Assembly: GCA_044225505.1 (NCBI GenBank)
Contig: JBGAIN010000042.1
Span: 1-49,821 of the forward strand
Direction: 5' to 3'
Source of the DNA: Limisphaerales bacterium
GTDB taxonomy: Bacteria; Verrucomicrobiota; Verrucomicrobiia; Limisphaerales; SIBE01
DNA: 49,821 bases
This document shows, piece after piece, positions 9,236-24,351 of this stretch. Below the pieces are notes generated by a model. That model saw nothing but the letters and a program-made list of their open reading frames with translations. It was not told where the DNA came from and did not search any database. Both the position numbers and the translations under genes were made by a program. How positions within the stretch are numbered: position 1 is the first letter of the stretch; every line of letters begins with the position of its first letter.

Positions 9236-10156
9236 ATGAAACTTTGGACGCAATCATTGATTCTTCTCTCATTCTGCATTGGGAGTGCCTGGGCCCAGCC
9301 ATCGCCATCGAATGCCAGTGGCGCTGGAGTCGTCGCCAGCGGCGCCAAGCTGGAAAAGCTATCGGGCGAATTTGAGTTTACCGAAGGGCCAACATCAGAC
9401 GCCGCGGGCAATGTGTTTTTCACAGATCAACCGAACGATCGCATCATGAAATGGAGCGTCGACGGACAGCTGTCGACCTATCTCCATCCCGCGGGTCGGG
9501 CCAACGGGATGTACTTCGATGAAGGAGGCAACCTCATCGCGTGCGCGGATGAAAAGACGGAACTGTGGTCGATTGCAAAAGATAAGAAGATCACGATCCT
9601 GGCGAAGGAATTCAATGGAAAGATGCTGAACGGGCCCAACGACGTCTGGTTCCGGCAAGGGGGCGGACTTTACTTCACCGATCCATTCTACAAACGGCCG
9701 TGGTGGAACTATGAAAAAATGCCGCAAGACGGCCAGCACGTTTACTATCTCGCCGCGGACCGAGCCAAGCTACGACGGGTCGCGGATGACCTCACCCAGC
9801 CGAACGGGATCATCGGTTCCCCAGATGGTCAGCTGCTTTATGTGTCCGACATCGGCGCTCGCAAGACGTATCGCTATCATATTCAACCGGACGGTTCTTT
9901 AGGGAGCAAGAAACTGTTCTGCGAACTTGGCTCCGACGGCATGACTCTAGACAGTGCTGGCAACGTTTATCTCACGGGCAAGGGCGTGACCGTGTTTAAC
10001 CCTGCTGGGAAACAAATCGATCACATCGATGTGCCTGAGCCTTGGACTGCCAATGTTTCCTTCGGCGGGAAGGAGCGGGAAACCTTGTTTATCACCGCAA
10101 GCAAAGGGCTCTACTCGATTCGCGTAAACGTGCGCGGAGCCAAAGCTTCGAAGTAA
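9236..10156 (+). CDS. SMP-30/gluconolactonase/LRE family protein, secreted
   Basis: FTEGP, GPNDV, YFTDP, QPNGI, SDGMTLD motifs; signal peptide. Confidence 0.92.
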   Translation: MKLWTQSLILLSFCIGSAWAQPSPSNASGAGVVASGAKLEKLSGEFEFTEGPTSDAAGNVFFTDQPNDRIMKWSVDGQLSTYLHPAGRANGMYFDEGGNLIACADEKTELWSIAKDKKITILAKEFNGKMLNGPNDVWFRQGGGLYFTDPFYKRPWWNYEKMPQDGQHVYYLAADRAKLRRVADDLTQPNGIIGSPDGQLLYVSDIGARKTYRYHIQPDGSLGSKKLFCELGSDGMTLDSAGNVYLTGKGVTVFNPAGKQIDHIDVPEPWTANVSFGGKERETLFITASKGLYSIRVNVRGAKASK

Positions 10157-10309
10157 TCGAGGGCGGGTGCACTCCGCGGAGCACTGGAAGCGGGAGTTTT
10201 CTAACCAGCCCGCGACGTGGCTCCGTGATTCCCAGACCGCTGGCGAATGCGTTTTGCAGGCCAGGCCAAATTCCTCGCCGCAAAGTTTGCCGAATCAGGC
10301 GGACGATTC

Positions 10310-16496: not shown

Positions 16497-16701
16497 GCGG
16501 TAACCGTAAATTATCTCTTCGACAGAGCAAGAGCGACGTGGCACAAACTACTGGCTGGGTCTGATTCCGACGAAGGTCGCCGTGAAACAGACTGCTTCGG
16601 ATAATGACGTCAACTCTCTTCGCTATTCCTCGGTCCGCGGGCAATTTTACTGTCCTGGGCGGAAGAAAGCGGTTTTGGCCTGTCGAACAATACGTCGAGC
16701 G

Positions 16702-18000
16702 ATGATCACGTCATTCCCGAGGATGCAGTGGATCCAGCAGAAATATCCGGACCTCCCCAGGATTGATCTTGTTCGGGCTGTTCACCAGGAGCTGGCGGCC
16801 ATCGAAAAGCAGCTTCGACCAGGCCAACGAGTAGCGGTCGCGGTTGGAAGCCGAGGTATTCAAGAGTTAGAAACCGTGGTACGGACCGTTGTTCAACATT
16901 TGAGAGGCATTGGCACCCAGCCATTCATCCTGCCGGCCATGGGCAGCCATGGCGGCGCGACGCCGGAGGGGCAAACGGCGGTTTTGGCCGAGTATGGCAT
17001 CACCGCGGAGAGTTTGGGCGTTCCTATCGAAGCGAGCGTGGAAGTGCAACAGATTGGCCTAACACCGGAGAACGTCGATGTCCATTGCAGCGTCGAAGCG
17101 CTCAAAGCGGACGCTATCGTGCTCGTTAATCGGATCAAACCGCACACGGATTTTGTTGGTAACCTTGGGAGCGGCATCTTGAAGATGTTGGTCATCGGGT
17201 TGGGCAAACGCACCGGAGCCACTTGTTTTCACATCGCTGCGACGCGATTCGGGTATGAGCCGATGCTGAGAAGCTTGGCCAAAGTGATTCTACAAACCGC
17301 CCCCATTCTCTGCGGAATTGGACTGATCGAGGACCAACGTCATCAAATCGTTCGCATCGCTTCCCTTCCGGCCGAGAAGCTCGAAGCCACGGAAGAGTCT
17401 CTCTTTCAAGAGGCGAAACGGTTGATGCCTAAATTGCCGTTTGACGATATCGACCTTCTGATTATCGATCGGATAGGGAAAAACATCAGCGGAGCTGGAA
17501 TGGACCCGAACGTGACCGGCCGCGGCGTGCAAGGTTACCTCTCGTCGTTAGATCAGCGCAATCTTCCCGCGCCGAGGATCAAACGTGTTTTCGTACGGGA
17601 TCTGACGCCCGAGACGCACGGAAATGCAATCGGGATAGGCTTTGCCGACATTACCACGACGCGCGCGGTCAAGGCGATCGACTTGCGCGTCACCTATGTC
17701 AACGCCCTTACTTCGCTCACTCCGCAGAGCGTGAAAATCCCCATTCATTTTGACACAGACCGTGAAGCGCTGACGCGTGTCCTGGAGTCTTTGGCCCTTG
17801 ACCGCGTCGAAGACGCCCGAGTCGTTCGCATTCTCGACACACTGACTCTCGAGAACGCGCAAGTCTCGGAGAACTTCGCTCCGTTATGGAAACTACGCCG
17901 TGACCTGGTTACCTTCGGCTCGCCGTGCGAGATGGCGTTCGATGCGAGCGACAACCTTTTGCCCATTGACAATTTCCGATCGAACCACCGACATGTCTGA
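16702..18000 (+). CDS. LarA-like (lactate racemase N-terminal domain) protein, putative alpha-hydroxy-acid racemase/epimerase
   Basis: AVGSRGI, PAMGSHGGATPEGQ, NRIKPHT, GKNISGAGMDPNV motifs; start at MITSFP. Confidence 0.75.
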   Translation: MITSFPRMQWIQQKYPDLPRIDLVRAVHQELAAIEKQLRPGQRVAVAVGSRGIQELETVVRTVVQHLRGIGTQPFILPAMGSHGGATPEGQTAVLAEYGITAESLGVPIEASVEVQQIGLTPENVDVHCSVEALKADAIVLVNRIKPHTDFVGNLGSGILKMLVIGLGKRTGATCFHIAATRFGYEPMLRSLAKVILQTAPILCGIGLIEDQRHQIVRIASLPAEKLEATEESLFQEAKRLMPKLPFDDIDLLIIDRIGKNISGAGMDPNVTGRGVQGYLSSLDQRNLPAPRIKRVFVRDLTPETHGNAIGIGFADITTTRAVKAIDLRVTYVNALTSLTPQSVKIPIHFDTDREALTRVLESLALDRVEDARVVRILDTLTLENAQVSENFAPLWKLRRDLVTFGSPCEMAFDASDNLLPIDNFRSNHRHV

Positions 18001-18463: not shown

Positions 18464-21442
18464 TTGCCCTGGCGTGATCCTGTTTTTACGCTCTTGCGCG
18501 TGTCGACCCAAGTTCCAGCGCGAGAAGCGATCGTGCCGCTTTGCGAGGCCGTGCGGCTTCGAGCGGAAAAAGTAACTTTGCCCAGTCATCCTCGGCCAAT
18601 ACGCGCCGACCTGCCCGTGCTGCTCTTGCTCGCAGCGGGCAAAGGGACTCGTTTCGGGCAGGAGCCCAAGTGCGCTCAGTTAGTTAACGGGGTACCTCTC
18701 GCTCGACATACGATCGAGGCGTTTCACTGCTTTAGCCCATCCGCGGTGATCGCCGTTGTGGGTTATCGACACCAGCAAGTTTCGGCCGCTCTGGGAATGG
18801 ACAACGTGTTTGTCCGGTCGGACAACTCGGCCGGCGGAACAGCTTTTGCCGCTTACGAGGCATTCAGCCTGCCAGATCTCGAACAGGAAAACCCGGTGGT
18901 GATCCTGACGATGGGAGATCGGGTGGTCCCAGAGTCCATTCTGCGTCGCCTTTTTGACACACATTTGGCCGCCCCGCGCGAAGCGGACGTGACATTCCTG
19001 ACTGCCGTTTACGAGGCGCCAAAGAATCGCGGCAAGGGGCGGATTATCCGGGATGCCCATGGAAAAGTCGTTGGTATCATCGAACAGCAAGACATCGATG
19101 CGATTCAGGATAGCAAAGTCCGATCCTCGCTGGACGAATTGACGGAAGGGAATTGTCCGCTCTACGCGATTCGCGCGCGGATCCTGCGGCGTTGTTTAGA
19201 GAATCTCTCGAATGACAACGCTCAGCGGCAGTACTATCTCACGGACGTGGTGGAGGCAATTCGCAAGGAAGGCGGTGAAATTCGGACCCTGACCACGAAG
19301 GTGAAGGATGTCGAGTATGACCTTCTTTGTTCCGACGTGACCCGGCCGATGGATCTGGCATTGCTGGAGGGGGTCCTTAAATCGGTGCCCTCGACGAATC
19401 GAAGCGGTGCTCCTGGAGTCGACAATGCGGCGACTCTCATCCGAACGGCGCGACCCTCAGCTCAGACGGCTTCCATCGCCGAGCAATTGGAAGAATTGCA
19501 GGAGGCGGGGCGCAAGCTTGGATTCAAATCGGATGAAGCCGTGGCAATTGGGGTTTCTGGTGGGCGCTTGCGGATTGCGTTTATGCATCCGGATATGGGA
19601 CGGTTTTTCGGTCCGGCCTGGCAGATGCCTACCGGGGCAGCCGACGCCTCTGGGCGCGAACAGATCGTTGTTATGATGCAGCGTTCCGAGGATCGACGCA
19701 TCCACTTGGAACCGACTCGGCCTGAATTTCAAGAGAAGGTTTCGTCGATTTCAGCGGACATCGATTGCATGTATCCGGGTAGCGACGTGGGGGATTGGTA
19801 TAGCTACGAAGGGTTTGGCACTCGCATGGCGGAAAACCTTTTATTGTCGCTCGGCTATTTCACGGAGGAGGAAGTGCAGCGGCGCCGTGAGCACGGGCAG
19901 CCGCTACCCCCGGCATCGCTTTGGGTCAGTACGAGCATGAGGCGACCGTTTTCTCTTGTCGGTAATGCGATTGCCTCCATGAGGACCGTCCGTTCCGGAA
20001 CGCTTGGAGCAAAGGTTCAGGCTTCTTTAGGGCGCGACCATTTCACTGGTCTTCGCATCGTTTCCGCTGGAAATATTCCACGAGGCGGTTTTTCAAGCTC
20101 GTCCGCGGTGACGGTTGCGGCCAAAAACGCCATCAACGCCCTATTTGGCTTGAATATACCAGACGACATGCTGGTGCACCTCTCTTGCCAGGCGGAATAT
20201 GGGACGGGCGTGCGCGCTGGGTCATTGGACCAGGCGACTGAGCAAAAGGGCCGCGCGGGTCAGGGCACGTTGCTGTCTTCCAATCCGCGAGATAATTACC
20301 GGATTCTTGGGACGTATCCCGTCCCAGGCGATCGAATTCAGCTTTTGTTCCCTTTTTCGGTGGATCGAGATCGGCTGGCGTGGCGCTGGTCTGGAGGGGT
20401 CTATGGTGAGAAACCTGGAGCCACTCTGCAAACAACTGGCGAAACGCGCAAAATGACAGGCAAAGCTGCCGAGTTGGCTGCGGTGCTCCTGGCACTCCCA
20501 GTGGACCAAGACTTCTTCCAACCGCTGGAGACAGAGCTCGTGACGGCTGGGAGATTGGGCCTGGCCAAACGCCGCTGGGTGTGCGACGTGTTGCGCGGCC
20601 TTCCCTTACTCATTACCCGAGAAGAATTGCGGCAACGTCTGGAAGATAAACGGCCGTGGTACGTGGATCAGTTGGCTGACTCCGAGAAGGTCAGCGTTGG
20701 GGTAGCAGAGCAAAAGGCGAAGGTGGCTTTTGAGAGCTTACTCGCGGGCTGGCATGATCCCCTTTATCGGCGGTGCACAGCTTCAGGGAGTTCTGTGACC
20801 GAGACGGGTGTCCCCTTGCGAGCGATCGTTGGCTACCTTTTTGCTGAAGTGGCGAAAAACTTTCGACTCATTCATGCTCCAGATCAATGGATCGATTGGG
20901 TGACCCGATCACAATGGGGGGATCGCTGTTTCCAGATCGACCCGTTGTCACTTCCGACATTGGATGCGATGAGCGAGGCTCTGCCTTGGGAAAAGGATTT
21001 GCGCGGACCTGTTCTGCTAGACCGATGGCTGGCCGAATTCAATGCGCAGCCGTTCGATTTCAATCGGGGGTTGGATGACGCGTCACTCGCTTCCGATCCG
21101 CCTCCAGAGATTGAGTTCTGGGAGGGCACTAATTTCTTCCGTGGTTTAGCCCTGATCGACCTCGCGGAAGCGATGTTGAAGCGGGCGTTTGGCGCTCACG
21201 CGGTCGCTGTCCGCGTAAATGCGGCCGGCCAAGGAGACTTCTTTCAGGTTCACGTTGATAAGAGTCAAGCGGACCTTGGGCAAGTAAAGGAGTTCATCCG
21301 ACGGGCGTTTTACAGGCGCTTTGAGCTGACGCCCGAACAGGAGTTCGTTGAAGTTCACCCGGGCGGAGGCGCGATCGGCGTGCAGTTAGAGCGTTTTGAT
21401 CAAGTCGGCGATTTGATCCGGGCGCTGCGCCGGGTCCGATAA
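18464..21442 (+). CDS. Bifunctional GlmU-like sugar-1-phosphate nucleotidyltransferase / GHMP (galactokinase-like) kinase fusion
   Basis: N-terminal LAAGKGTRF..PK and NDNAQRQYYLTD. C-terminal GRLRIAFMHPD, IPRGGFSSSSA, EYGTGVRAGSLDQ and RVNAAGQG. Start uncertain (TTG at 18464 or 18578). Confidence 0.8.
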   Translation: MPWRDPVFTLLRVSTQVPAREAIVPLCEAVRLRAEKVTLPSHPRPIRADLPVLLLLAAGKGTRFGQEPKCAQLVNGVPLARHTIEAFHCFSPSAVIAVVGYRHQQVSAALGMDNVFVRSDNSAGGTAFAAYEAFSLPDLEQENPVVILTMGDRVVPESILRRLFDTHLAAPREADVTFLTAVYEAPKNRGKGRIIRDAHGKVVGIIEQQDIDAIQDSKVRSSLDELTEGNCPLYAIRARILRRCLENLSNDNAQRQYYLTDVVEAIRKEGGEIRTLTTKVKDVEYDLLCSDVTRPMDLALLEGVLKSVPSTNRSGAPGVDNAATLIRTARPSAQTASIAEQLEELQEAGRKLGFKSDEAVAIGVSGGRLRIAFMHPDMGRFFGPAWQMPTGAADASGREQIVVMMQRSEDRRIHLEPTRPEFQEKVSSISADIDCMYPGSDVGDWYSYEGFGTRMAENLLLSLGYFTEEEVQRRREHGQPLPPASLWVSTSMRRPFSLVGNAIASMRTVRSGTLGAKVQASLGRDHFTGLRIVSAGNIPRGGFSSSSAVTVAAKNAINALFGLNIPDDMLVHLSCQAEYGTGVRAGSLDQATEQKGRAGQGTLLSSNPRDNYRILGTYPVPGDRIQLLFPFSVDRDRLAWRWSGGVYGEKPGATLQTTGETRKMTGKAAELAAVLLALPVDQDFFQPLETELVTAGRLGLAKRRWVCDVLRGLPLLITREELRQRLEDKRPWYVDQLADSEKVSVGVAEQKAKVAFESLLAGWHDPLYRRCTASGSSVTETGVPLRAIVGYLFAEVAKNFRLIHAPDQWIDWVTRSQWGDRCFQIDPLSLPTLDAMSEALPWEKDLRGPVLLDRWLAEFNAQPFDFNRGLDDASLASDPPPEIEFWEGTNFFRGLALIDLAEAMLKRAFGAHAVAVRVNAAGQGDFFQVHVDKSQADLGQVKEFIRRAFYRRFELTPEQEFVEVHPGGGAIGVQLERFDQVGDLIRALRRVR

Positions 21443-22075
21443 CTATTTCGGCAGTAGAGTCATCAAGTCCGAATGAGGGCGAGCAATGACGTGCGCGGCA
21501 ATTAGTTTGCCTAGATTGCGGACTGCGGCGGCGCCCGCGTCGACGGCAGCTTGGACGGCGGCCACGTCTCCGCGGATCATTACGGTCACATAGGCAGCAC
21601 CAATCTTCTCTTTGCCCACCAGGGTGACATTGGCAGCCTTCAACATGACATCTGTGGCTTCGAGTAGGGCTGTTAAACCTTGGGTTTCGAGGATACCCAA
21701 GGCGAGCTGATTCTCATTCATAGCGTTGTTTGAAGTTTGCAGGAAGTCCGTGGCGAGGAACTGATCACGGCCTCCATAGAGGGCGTTTTGTGCGTTTGGA
21801 AATCTTAGAAGAGTGCCCAGATTCGGCTCGGGACTGGGTAAACAATGAGTCACGACATTGCAGCCGAGCTCCTGAGCTCGGTTTTCTGCTGTCGCCAAGG
21901 AGGCTTGAACTGCGGCGACCGATCCTGAGACGCGGATTTGTAGATTCTCATTTCCAGTGGTCTCGAATCCAAGCAGGCCGACGTCAGCCGCTTTCAACAT
22001 GGCGTCAGCGACGAGCGCCGTGATGCTGAGAAATGCAATTTCAACAAGCCCTAGAGCTGCCGCTTCCGAGTTCAA
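21443..22075 (-). CDS. Bacterial microcompartment shell protein with two tandem BMC domains
   Basis: Domain 1: ALGLVE...[10 protein letters not shown]...[10 protein letters not shown]. Domain 2: ALGILET.G...DVMLKAANV...[15 protein letters not shown]...AHVIARPH. Confidence 0.93.
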
Positions 22076-22086
22076 ATGATTGCAGG

Positions 22087-23136
22087 TTAGCGATTCTGAA
22101 GTTGGCGAATGACTTCTTTGGCAATGGCCTCAGCATCTAAACCAATCTTGGAAGGCACCGCTGCGAGCGATTCACGGCCCTCCGTAAGGGCAGTGTCGCG
22201 GCGGTTTGCGCACAGCGTGCGACAGGCCGAGGCAGCCTCGGAAAACCCACACTCTGTGAGGAGGCAAGCGATTTTGGAGCGAATGTCCTCGAGGTCGGAT
22301 TTCTCCTGCGGTGAGAGCAGTTGCCGAGTCGTCCCCAAATTGAAACCTCGCAAGGACATCCCAGCGCGGAAACCTTCCGGAAAGTTCGTTCCGAACAGCA
22401 TCGCGTTGATCAGGTCTAGCAGTTTGAATTGCACCCGTTTAGCTTCCTTAAGATTCCCTTGCTGGAAATCGCGATAGAGTTTCATGACCACCTCGGGCAC
22501 CACGCCAGAAGTCGCGATCGTGCCGCCGTCACCTCCCATGAGCAAGGTCGGGAAGAGAATCTCTTCACAGCCGATCAGACAGCTGAATTCAGGCCGTTGC
22601 CCTTTAATGGCGTGGAGCGTGTTGAGGAATCGCGGAAAATCACGACTGCTGTCTTTGACTCCGACGATCCGAGGGCAATCCAAAGCCAACCGGGTCAGGA
22701 CCGGCACGCTAATTTCATTCGAGAATTGCGGTATGTTGTAGAGAACGATGTCGATAGGCGATCTTCTGGCCAATTCCCGGAAGAAATGCTCGATGCTCTC
22801 CTGGCTGACTTTGTAATAGTAAGGTCCAGTTACGGAGACGGCGGTGCATCCTAAATCGGCATAGAAACGGCAAGCCTCGAGAATCATTGTTAAGTTTGAC
22901 TCCGCGGCTCCCGCCAGAATCGGCACGCGTCCGCGTGTCTCTTCCGCGACGATTTGAATGACTCGTTTGCGTTCCTCGAAACTTAGGCGAATAAATTCCC
23001 CGGTACTGCCGTTTGGGTAAAGTCCGCTGACGCCTTTCTCGATCAGCCAGGAGATCAAGCGGCGCAGTTCTCCTTCATCAATGCTACCGTCCTCGCGGAA
23101 GGGGACCAAGTTGGGCGTATAGATGCCTCGGATCAT
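22087..23136 (-). CDS. DapA/NanA-family class I aldolase with a C-terminal extension resembling an encapsulation peptide
   Basis: NGSTGEF, YNIPQ and Schiff-base GVKDSS motifs; tail ...[17 protein letters not shown]; start ATG 23136 or TTG 23151. Confidence 0.88.
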
Positions 23137-23352
23137 AGGCCGGTCATGCAATGGAGCGTTCGGTTCGTACCACGAGTTTGTTGTAACGGGATCGCCTGGC
23201 GAGCGAAAGCATATTTCGAGATCGGATTTATGGCGCTCTGGATGTGCCAGGGTGAATCTGGGACGGATGGAGGGAATTCCGCACTTCAGCGCACTTCGAT
23301 GGTGCGTTTATCCGCGGTCCGCTATATCGTCGACCCGATAAATCCAACGCGC

Positions 23353-24351
23353 GTGAAAAGCATTGTTACCTTGTGTTCGGATATACGAGTTATTGTGACT
23401 CTAATCCTGTTTGCGGTCGTCGGTTGCGGGTCCGGCCCGCAAAGCAGCAGTGGTACCGGGCCCGCCCCGACGACAGCACCGGCGAGCCAATACAAGTTTG
23501 TCGTCATTACCCACGCCTCCGCGGTTCCGTTCTTTGTCCCCGTGCGCAAGGGCGTGGAGGAAGCGGGGAAACTCATTGGTGCCGACGTATCGTTTACAGG
23601 CCCACCCGATTTTAACGTGGCGCGACAGATCGAAGTGATCAAAGCGGCAATTGCTGCTCATGTGGATGGCATCGGGACGACGTTGCCGAATCCTGACGCC
23701 TTCAACGATGTAGTGGCAGAGGCGCTCGGCCAAGGGATTCCCATCGTCGCACTCAACGCCGATGCCCCGAGCAGCCGTCGTTTGGCCTACATTGGGCAGG
23801 GCAATTTCGAAGCCGGGCGCTCGATGGGACGAGAGATTGTCAAGCTCCTGCCAGACGGTGGCCAGGTCTTGCTTTGCACGCACACGGCTGGGGCATTCAA
23901 TCTGGAGGAGAGGCTCCGCGGCATTCGTGATGCCCTTCAACAACACGGGAAGTTCACGCCGCAAGTGATTGCCACGACGACGGACCTGGTAAAAGCGACA
24001 TCTCTTATCGGTAGTTATTATCAAGGTCATCCGGAAACCAAAGGCTTCTTCGGGGTTGACGACATCACGGGTTCGGCGATTGCCCAGGTGCTCGATCGCG
24101 AAAAACTCAAGGGAAAGGTGCTCGGGGGCGGGTTTGACTTGGTTCCAGACGTCATGGCGGCCATTAAAGCGGGAGTAATGCAGTTCACCATTGACCAGCA
24201 ACCTTACTTGCAGGGGTTCAACACCGTTATGCAGCTTTATCTTCTGAAGAAGTATGGGCTGGCTCCGACGGACATTAACACCGGCGTCGCTCCCGTGACA
24301 TCGGCCAATGTGGAAGCGGTGATGAAGCTAGCCGAGCAAGGCTATCGTTGA
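23353..24351 (+). CDS. Sugar ABC transporter substrate-binding lipoprotein (RbsB-like)
   Basis: VVGC lipobox; FF..V.KG...A, YIGQGNFEAG, GGFD, TIDQQPYLQG motifs; start uncertain (GTG 23353 chosen). Confidence 0.9.
   Translation: MKSIVTLCSDIRVIVTLILFAVVGCGSGPQSSSGTGPAPTTAPASQYKFVVITHASAVPFFVPVRKGVEEAGKLIGADVSFTGPPDFNVARQIEVIKAAIAAHVDGIGTTLPNPDAFNDVVAEALGQGIPIVALNADAPSSRRLAYIGQGNFEAGRSMGREIVKLLPDGGQVLLCTHTAGAFNLEERLRGIRDALQQHGKFTPQVIATTTDLVKATSLIGSYYQGHPETKGFFGVDDITGSAIAQVLDREKLKGKVLGGGFDLVPDVMAAIKAGVMQFTIDQQPYLQGFNTVMQLYLLKKYGLAPTDINTGVAPVTSANVEAVMKLAEQGYR

Follow-up and report, generated by a model that had tools for sequence, protein, structure and literature searches.

A class I aldolase gene adjoining a tandem shell gene

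The 49,821-nucleotide stretch of DNA analyzed here, referred to as the window, comprises positions 1 to 49,821 of contig JBGAIN010000042.1 from a Limisphaerales bacterium (Verrucomicrobiota; GenBank assembly GCA_044225505.1). On its reverse strand lie two adjoining genes, one for a class I aldolase of the dihydrodipicolinate synthase/N-acetylneuraminate lyase (DHDPS/NAL) family with a C-terminal extension and one for a tandem-domain shell protein (BMC-T) of a bacterial microcompartment (BMC). The features of the pair are as follows.

22087..23136, (-) strand: gene for a 349-aa class I aldolase of the DHDPS/NAL family (open reading frame [ORF] and PF00701 match)
22276..23133, (-) strand: catalytic TIM-barrel domain (PF00701 match, alignment with YagE, and invariant columns in A1, an alignment of 18 homologues)
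22222..22266, (-) strand: Cys triad C296-x4-C301-x8-C310, directly after the DHDPS fold (invariant in 18/18 sequences of A1)
22141..22221, (-) strand: variable linker with abundant P, S, A, G, and R, residues 311-337 (A1 and predicted local distance difference test score [pLDDT])
22090..22140, (-) strand: C-terminal helix, candidate encapsulation peptide (structure model and conserved core)
22076..22086, (-) strand: 11-base spacer from the aldolase stop to the BMC-T start (sequence)
21443..22075, (-) strand: 210-aa BMC-T shell protein carrying the PF00936 domain twice (profile match)

The aldolase ORF extends over 22087-23151 (-) and encodes 354 aa. Because its homologues begin at M6 of this frame (MIRGIY), the gene is taken as 22087-23136, 349 aa from the ATG at 23136, although residues are numbered by the 354-aa frame, which opens at an in-frame TTG at 23151. 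A preliminary description of this DNA had reported the motifs GSTGE, KDSS, and YNIPQFS and an end coordinate of 23136; the translation contains the motifs, as NGSTGEF, GVKDSS, and LYNIPQFS, and the coordinate agrees with the gene as taken here. The TAA stop codon of the aldolase (22087-22089) and the TTG start of BMC-T (22075) are separated by 11 bases, no terminator-like site was found between the two genes, and the short spacer implies that they are likely to be co-transcribed. A tandem-domain BMC shell gene 11 nt downstream of the aldolase, as described before, is thus confirmed by the spacer as read and by the two PF00936 domains.

Metatranscriptome contigs from four runs, compared over 21000-23700, include identical pieces of 151-225 bases within the aldolase gene (X15, X16, and X17) and an identical 158-base piece within the BMC-T gene (X18), and none of them bridges the aldolase/BMC-T junction. 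Expression is hinted at no more than weakly by these RNA pieces, since DNA carry-over is possible, and stretches without a match carry no information. The matches of X15-X18 span 21794-21951 and 22549-23073 and derive from libraries of sludge, wastewater, or biofilm in three studies; the whole stretch is also present in DNA runs labeled as activated-sludge or bioreactor metagenomes.

The 210-aa BMC-T protein matches PF00936 twice, with 141.3 bits in total. Its first domain (21830-22057) is diverged and its second (21476-21703) is canonical and nearly invariant in A2, an alignment of 18 BMC-T orthologs with a mean identity of 75%. The genome has five BMC-domain matches, two of which are the domains of the window protein. 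Because the other three are BMC-H proteins on another contig, C310, the window BMC-T is the only tandem shell gene found in the genome.

The window enzyme is distinct from DapA

The DHDPS profile PF00701 matches residues 7-292 of the aldolase with 192.5 bits, against a curated cut-off of 22.1, and the Pfam scan gave no match on residues 293-354. The closest solved structure among the PDB matches is that of E. coli YagE (140 bits), in which the residues equivalent to K166 (the Schiff-base Lys of GVKDSS), Y138 (LYNIPQFS), and T50 (GSTGE) are the same. All three columns are invariant in A1, and the AlphaFold2 model of the aldolase has a mean pLDDT of 77.1.

It could be supposed that this enzyme is a true DapA serving lysine and peptidoglycan synthesis, given that some sources annotate its homologues in this way and that the general DHDPS fold matches, but we give this explanation almost no credence. 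In DapA, the Arg that follows Y-N-x-P binds aspartate semialdehyde. The substrate-binding Arg of the YNxPxR motif is replaced in the window enzyme by Phe (F143), which is nearly invariant in A1. The aldolase falls below every equivalog cut-off in NCBIfam, scoring 154.5 bits against 206.15 on the dapA model TIGR00674 and 157.5 against 281 on NF003164, which has the lower cut-off among the N-acetylneuraminate lyase models. A true dapA is, moreover, present on contig C322 between dapB and dapF, with a stronger DHDPS match (297 bits) and the Arg-bearing motif YSIPGRCG. The earlier view that the enzyme is not a true DapA is therefore upheld by the TIGR00674 score, the Phe in place of Arg, and the separate dapA, and at the level of sequence we show here that it is a class I aldolase of the DHDPS/NAL family.

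For the dapA gene on C322 (L099 1453-2301 (-)), the match to the DHDPS profile stops at position 261 of 289, and the final ~20 residues of the protein look unlike DapA; the 3' end of the gene may contain a frameshift or an assembly error.

A complete microcompartment locus elsewhere in the genome

All components of a Planctomycetes and Verrucomicrobia microcompartment (PVM) lie together on contig C310, at ~72.7-80.2 kb. The order of genes is PduL, BMC-H, BMC-H, acetate kinase, BMC-H, BMC-P, aldehyde dehydrogenase, BMC-P, and BMC-P, and these are followed by a class II aldolase (PF00596), a lactate/malate dehydrogenase-like (LDH/MDH-like) protein, a 432-aa protein, and a HAD hydrolase. This gene set corresponds to the PVM composition given by Axen et al. 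2014 (PMC4207490) and Sutter et al. 2021 (PMC8217296), and lactaldehyde is named as the aldehyde of the PVM organelle (PMC4207490). The preliminary description had placed the core enzymes and vertex proteins of the microcompartment outside the window, and the C310 locus, with its BMC-P, aldehyde dehydrogenase, and PduL genes, supplies them.

The pair itself is on contig C102, and the window holds neither a BMC-P gene nor any BMC-H gene. Distal to a main locus with BMC-H and BMC-P genes, and joining a shell gene to an enzyme gene, the pair is a satellite BMC locus as defined by Sutter et al. 2021.

A C-terminal tail resembling an encapsulation peptide

The catalytic part of the aldolase is ~77% identical across A1, and the 120 best clusters listed in a search of a protein collection (75-100% identity) are all 321-374 residues long, so that the C-terminal extension can be regarded as a family trait. 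None of the PDB homologues aligns past residue 294, and the extension is absent from distant homologues in two genomes (G297 and G174). The Cys triad has the consensus IAC[IL]L..CG[FY].EAA..C and is seen in most ortholog tails. The linker columns of A1 show no consensus and vary in length, with model pLDDT below 50 for residues 314-338, and the model then places a helix at residues 340-352 (block pLDDT ~83), with a core, [LIV][DN]V[DE]xIVREV[MI]xxL, that is conserved among orthologs.

Encapsulation peptides have been described as helices of 15-20 aa joined through a poorly conserved linker and present only on the BMC-associated homologues of an enzyme (PMC4594438). The tail, with its Cys triad, apparently disordered linker, and terminal helix, has this architecture as predicted from the alignment and the structure model, and we infer that it delivers the aldolase into the microcompartment. 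Of 79 complete orthologs (L010-L089, excluding the cut protein L057), 69 show a paired-hydrophobic pattern, PhiPhi-x-x-PhiPhi-x-x-Phi, within their last 28 residues, compared with 401 of 5633 C-termini of the genome's long ORFs (7.1%) and 321 of 7900 shuffled tails (4.1%). The same pattern is present at the N-termini of the genome's aldehyde dehydrogenase and PduL and at the C-terminus of its class II aldolase, where a Cys-rich stretch is likewise followed by a linker and then a helix. The Cys-rich stretch of the class II aldolase reads C-x2-C-x11-C (L009 ~10100-10180 (+)) and occupies the same pre-linker position as the Cys triad.

The description of the tail given earlier, a Cys-bearing linker followed by an amphipathic helix at 22090-22140, holds for the linker and for the position of the helix; as to amphipathicity, the paired-hydrophobic pattern is strongly enriched and the hydrophobic moment is modest. 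Two observations weigh against encapsulation here. The hydrophobic moment of the window helix (muH 0.47) is reached by 8.6% of shuffles, and over 76 tails the median is 7.6%. A BLASTP comparison of the last 60 residues of the aldolase with those of the class II aldolase gave no alignment at E <= 100. On the other side, the moments of the genome's own aldehyde dehydrogenase and PduL peptides are lower than that of the window tail, and encapsulation peptides of different enzymes are reported to share no sequence (PMC4594438). Two further analyses decide nothing: a hidden Markov model (HMM) of the helix core (18 columns from 76 tails), run against the genome's 77,787 stop-to-stop ORFs, scored its own tail at 12.6 bits (E 0.22) and so had no power, and the absence of the aldehyde dehydrogenase, PduL, and class II aldolase peptides from its top 25 carries no weight; co-folding of three BMC-T copies with tail residues 290-354 scored 0.00 without controls and is evidence neither way.

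A cytosolic enzyme could also be envisaged, in which the tail would serve oligomerization, regulation, or metal or redox sensing by the Cys triad, and in which BMC-T would be linked to the aldolase only through regulation shared with deoxy-sugar catabolism. An invariant Cys triad is no described part of encapsulation peptides, which suits such a role, as does a hydrophobic moment that is not outstanding. Against it, linker, terminal helix, and hydrophobic pattern together equal those of the genome's known cargo types, and the distribution of the tail among orthologs bears further on the choice.

Tail and gene pair among orthologs

The ortholog set consists of 88 loci, namely the best 80 of 149 relatives (one genome per species), seven from a phylum sample, and the window; 87 of the 88 proteins are complete (L057 is cut), and adjacency to BMC-T was counted by tblastn. 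Among the 78 loci with enough downstream sequence, 40 have a BMC-T gene immediately downstream in the same orientation, and with L095, L096, and the window the pairing is found at 43 of 88 loci. In the 40 loci, the BMC-T match begins a median of 12.5 bases from the aldolase stop (range, -15 to 114). This tight coupling to the shell gene argues against a cytosolic enzyme, whereas the fact that about half of the orthologs adjoin no shell gene speaks in its favor.

The tail is kept in 83 of the 87 complete orthologs, 79 with the canonical helix and four in a shorter form (L053, L054, L067, and L077). Four orthologs (L029, L041, L062, and L090) are tail-less, and no out-of-frame remnant of the helix was found downstream of them. 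In a quick maximum likelihood tree, built without L057 and supported by the Shimodaira-Hasegawa-like approximate likelihood ratio test (SH-aLRT) alone, the four tail-less proteins stand apart from one another, each within tailed clades (SH-aLRT 86-98; placement judged by eye). Because each nests inside tailed clades, the absence of the tail is read as a secondary loss that probably occurred at least four times.

Presence of the tail co-occurs with presence of BMC genes. Eight genomes of the phylum sample carry an ortholog (>=58% identity), and BMC domains are found in seven of them, against a background of 65 of 301 genomes (22%) in the sample as a whole. The eighth, G249 (99% complete), has no BMC domain found and its ortholog, L090, is tail-less; the genome of tail-less L029, G301, likewise gave no match in the BMC-domain search, and both proteins lack the Cys triad as well as the helix. 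Where the tailed copy is unpaired, BMC domains were found in 33 of 34 genomes. These genomes cover 33 of the 38 unpaired loci along with L047, and also L017 and L021; L087 was left out, its assembly being that of L048 and L071. All of these counts are descriptive and are not a statistical test, the genomes being relatives. The tail is accordingly not equally common where BMC genes are lacking, as the 33 of 34 genomes and the 22% background indicate. Both outcomes that had been fixed beforehand as speaking against the preliminary description and that could be looked for in silico, a genome devoid of other BMC genes and a tail just as frequent in genomes without them, failed to appear.

The correspondence is imperfect, and three points run counter to it. 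Tailed L026 occurs in G309, a metagenome-assembled genome (MAG) of unstated completeness, without a BMC match. Tail-less L041 and L062 remain in genomes with three BMC domains each (BMC-H), which would also be expected of a cytosolic enzyme. BMC-T, though frequent, is not obligatory, in that at least 8 of 32 genomes with a tailed aldolase show only three single BMC domains. With the retention of the tail in nearly all complete orthologs, its near-constant company of BMC genes in unpaired copies, and its loss together with the Cys triad in two genomes in which no BMC domain was found, we nevertheless regard a cytosolic role as improbable and encapsulation as the better explanation of the tail.

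One Verrucomicrobiia MAG, G314, carries three tailed aldolase paralogs (L048, L071, and L087) on three contigs, and the search of this genome gave just three single BMC domains. Eight loci with the pair (L011, L015, L025, L031, L035, L036, L039, and L069) are in MAGs labeled as Bifidobacterium/Bifidobacteriaceae, Bacteroidota, Ignavibacteriae, or Dongiaceae. As their proteins group with those of Verrucomicrobiota in the tree, the labels probably reflect errors of binning or labeling rather than transfers.

Pathway context and substrate

The neighbors of the orthologs, taken as clustered ORFs within 6 kb of the 88 loci, offer a view of the likely pathway. A short-chain dehydrogenase/reductase (SDR) is found at 25 loci, an enolase-superfamily dehydratase at 14, an Amidohydro_2 lactonase at 9, an SMP-30-type lactonase at 8, a LutA/B-like (lactate-utilization-like) protein at 7, RhaT at 6, and a GH78 rhamnosidase at 6, with RhaT or GH78 beside the ortholog at 10. 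Of the four oxidative-route genes, one or more are present at 37 loci and two or more at 16, and at L040 the genes follow one another in the order SDR, dehydratase, lactonase, aldolase, BMC-T. By their annotation, these neighbors have what appears to be the layout of a non-phosphorylative sugar route. Cleavage of 2-keto-3-deoxy-L-fuconate by an aldolase to pyruvate and L-lactaldehyde is an established route (PMC11199699, citing Watanabe 2020), and the gene content points to a route of this kind for a deoxy-hexose, which may end in pyruvate and lactaldehyde inside the organelle. A role as a non-phosphorylative entry enzyme, proposed beforehand from the window, thus gains independent support from the SDR, lactonase, dehydratase, RhaT, and GH78 neighbors. 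As the window genome also encodes rhamnose isomerase, the oxidative route would be an additional and not the sole entry.

Other results do not sit easily with a deoxy-hexose substrate. None of the four oxidative genes lies within 6 kb at 51 of 88 loci. Candidates for the upstream steps in the window genome show only weak homology and are dispersed over other contigs, away from the pair (SDR, 39%, on C153; Amidohydro_2, 45%, on C166; MR_MLE, 28%, on C40). The dehydratase beside orthologs misses the NCBIfam cut-off for L-rhamnonate/L-fuconate dehydratase, and the neighboring SDR and lactonase are below the cut-offs of the NCBIfam L-fucose-pathway models.

It is therefore conceivable that the encapsulated aldolase acts instead on 2-keto-3-deoxy-galactonate/gluconate or on 2-keto-3-deoxy-pentonates and feeds glyceraldehyde or glycolaldehyde to the aldehyde dehydrogenase of the organelle. 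YagE, the closest structure, was deposited as a 2-keto-3-deoxy-galactonate aldolase, and the dehydratase that neighbors 14 orthologs scores best on the NCBIfam model for D-galactonate dehydratase, exceeding its cut-off (329.2 against 311). Several homologues are named 2-dehydro-3-deoxy-D-pentonate aldolase by JGI, and the divergently transcribed neighbor of the window aldolase is a generic monosaccharide ABC transporter, the binding protein of which scores 66 bits on the rhamnose model against a cut-off of 342. However, identity to YagE is low and the names given to homologues are automatic; the RhaT, GH78, and lactate-utilization-like genes beside orthologs fit a deoxy-hexose, and the host organelle is characterized for lactaldehyde. 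We hold a galactonate- or pentonate-derived substrate to be unlikely, if still deserving of attention, and prefer a 6-deoxy-sugar acid.

Six loci (L016, L019, L022, L023, L028, and L042) share a block downstream of the pair, consisting of an MFS transporter, proteins of ~412 and ~873 aa, and an enolase-type dehydratase. PF00701 is matched a second time in this block, weakly (1.1e-11), by a long ORF; the ORF calls here may be chimeric.

A proposed satellite operon for the PVM organelle

Planctomycetes and Verrucomicrobia use the PVM organelle to digest fucose- and rhamnose-rich polysaccharides of algae and plants. To our knowledge, the only recognized aldehyde-generating enzyme of this organelle is the class II sugar-phosphate aldolase. 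When the tail, the shell gene, and the genomic context are placed side by side, we consider it moderately probable that the pair is a satellite operon encoding an encapsulated class I aldolase, with a 6-deoxy-sugar acid as substrate, together with an accessory shell tile of the genome's PVM microcompartment. Substrate, encapsulation, and the role of BMC-T are each deduced here. The operon would then probably give the fucose/rhamnose organelle a second way to take in deoxy-sugars.

The following mechanism can be proposed. The aldolase, acting through a Schiff base, would most likely cleave 2-keto-3-deoxy-L-rhamnonate and/or 2-keto-3-deoxy-L-fuconate to pyruvate and L-lactaldehyde. With the C-terminal extension acting as an encapsulation peptide, the aldehyde would be set free inside the shell, where the coenzyme A-acylating aldehyde dehydrogenase, PduL, and the LDH-like enzyme of the organelle could process it. 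The role of the class I aldolase would in this way parallel that of the class II fuculose/rhamnulose-phosphate aldolase of the main locus. BMC-T, produced along with its aldolase cargo, would add an accessory pseudohexameric tile to the shell, possibly with a pore that suits the keto-deoxy acid and pyruvate.

A bolder form of this proposal can also be put forward, in which the pair is a portable plug-in that switches the PVM organelle to non-phosphorylated keto-deoxy acids, BMC-T is a dedicated gate for the acid and pyruvate, and the Cys triad, with its counterpart ahead of the class II aldolase tail, is a hitherto undescribed metal- or redox-dependent element of cargo docking common to both aldolases. 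This extension is tentative, and we hold it with low confidence.

Neighboring genes

Convergent with BMC-T, with zero intergenic bases, is a gene at 18464-21442 (+) for a 992-aa fusion of a MobA/GlmU-like nucleotidyltransferase (residues 54-181) and a GHMP-kinase (residues 521-591). It is found in the same position in a close relative, L012 (69% identity), and nowhere else among the 80 loci, and it could encode a sugar-1-kinase/nucleotide-sugar pyrophosphorylase. At 16582-18000 (+) lies a gene for a LarA-like protein, which matches the NCBIfam model "nickel pincer cofactor-dependent isomerase, group 22" with 479.7 against a cut-off of 400.

Comparison with known systems and implications

The closest parallel to the tail is the peptide of the PVM class II aldolase (PMC4594438), which is likewise at the C-terminus of an aldolase presumed to release lactaldehyde, in the same genome and organelle type, and which shares the hydrophobic spacing and the ~17-residue helix preceded by a linker of 23-81 residues with little conservation. 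The two enzymes differ in that the class II aldolase is metal dependent and acts on a sugar phosphate, whereas the window enzyme is a class I Schiff-base TIM barrel with a presumed non-phosphorylated keto-deoxy acid substrate; the window gene also lies outside the main locus, and the tails are without detectable sequence similarity.

In being encoded away from the main locus and in joining a trimeric shell protein to a signature-type enzyme, the pair resembles the "EUT modules" of EutABC plus EutL beside HO/SPU loci (Sutter et al. 2021, PMC8217296), which are interpreted as extending the main organelle to a further substrate. Enzyme family, shell-protein clade, and host BMC type (PVM here) are different. 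The shell gene can be compared, by description only, with the "T_pvm"/Ts_mud tandem BMC-T proteins of the tree file in the supplement to PMC8217296, which are PVM satellites of ~202-233 aa from Planctomycetes. The window BMC-T is likewise a tandem PF00936 protein (210 aa) away from a PVM main locus, but its nearest relatives are labeled Verrucomicrobiota, unlike the T_pvm entries.

With respect to the enzyme, E. coli YagE (PDB 2v8z and 3n2x), a keto-deoxy-sugar-acid aldolase, shares the fold and the aligned Lys, Tyr, and GxxGE. It has no extension past the fold and no BMC association, and the sequences are distant. FucH is another member of the DHDPS/NAL family. By description only, it is similar to the window enzyme in converting a keto-deoxy-6-deoxyhexonate to pyruvate and L-lactaldehyde through a Lys Schiff base, and the dehydrogenase, lactonase, and dehydratase steps of its route resemble the ortholog neighbors; unlike the window enzyme, it has no targeting tail or shell gene reported in the parts of PMC11199699 drawn on here. 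DeoC of SPU microcompartments (PMC11585597) is also a class I aldolase bearing an encapsulation peptide and acting as the signature enzyme of a BMC, but it belongs to the PF01791 family, acts on a phosphorylated substrate, and is part of another BMC type.

In the supplementary text of PMC8217296, as excerpted, a PF00701 aldolase is named only for the uncharacterized MUF2 type, and the PVM text of its Supplementary Data 2 names no PF00701 enzyme, although the locus drawings may show the gene beside T_pvm, in which case the association would be on record already and its interpretation alone would be new. A full-text literature search found no paper linking a PF00701/DHDPS-type aldolase to the PVM organelle as cargo. 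PVM satellites with BMC-T are thus already cataloged, and satellites combining an enzyme with a shell tile have been discussed for ethanolamine (PMC8217296); what would be new for PVM is a second signature aldolase, of class I, that comes with an encapsulation tail of its own and with an accessory tile for the shell.

If this proposal is true, an ATP-independent oxidative route also ends inside the PVM organelle. The tailed aldolase occurs widely across these phyla, in many cases next to a shell tile gene of its own, and pathway reconstructions from metagenomes, in which these genes are now called DapA or NanA, would change. The pair would provide a new natural encapsulation tag and a combination of cargo and tile for engineering, as well as a concrete case for how satellite loci alter shell permeability.

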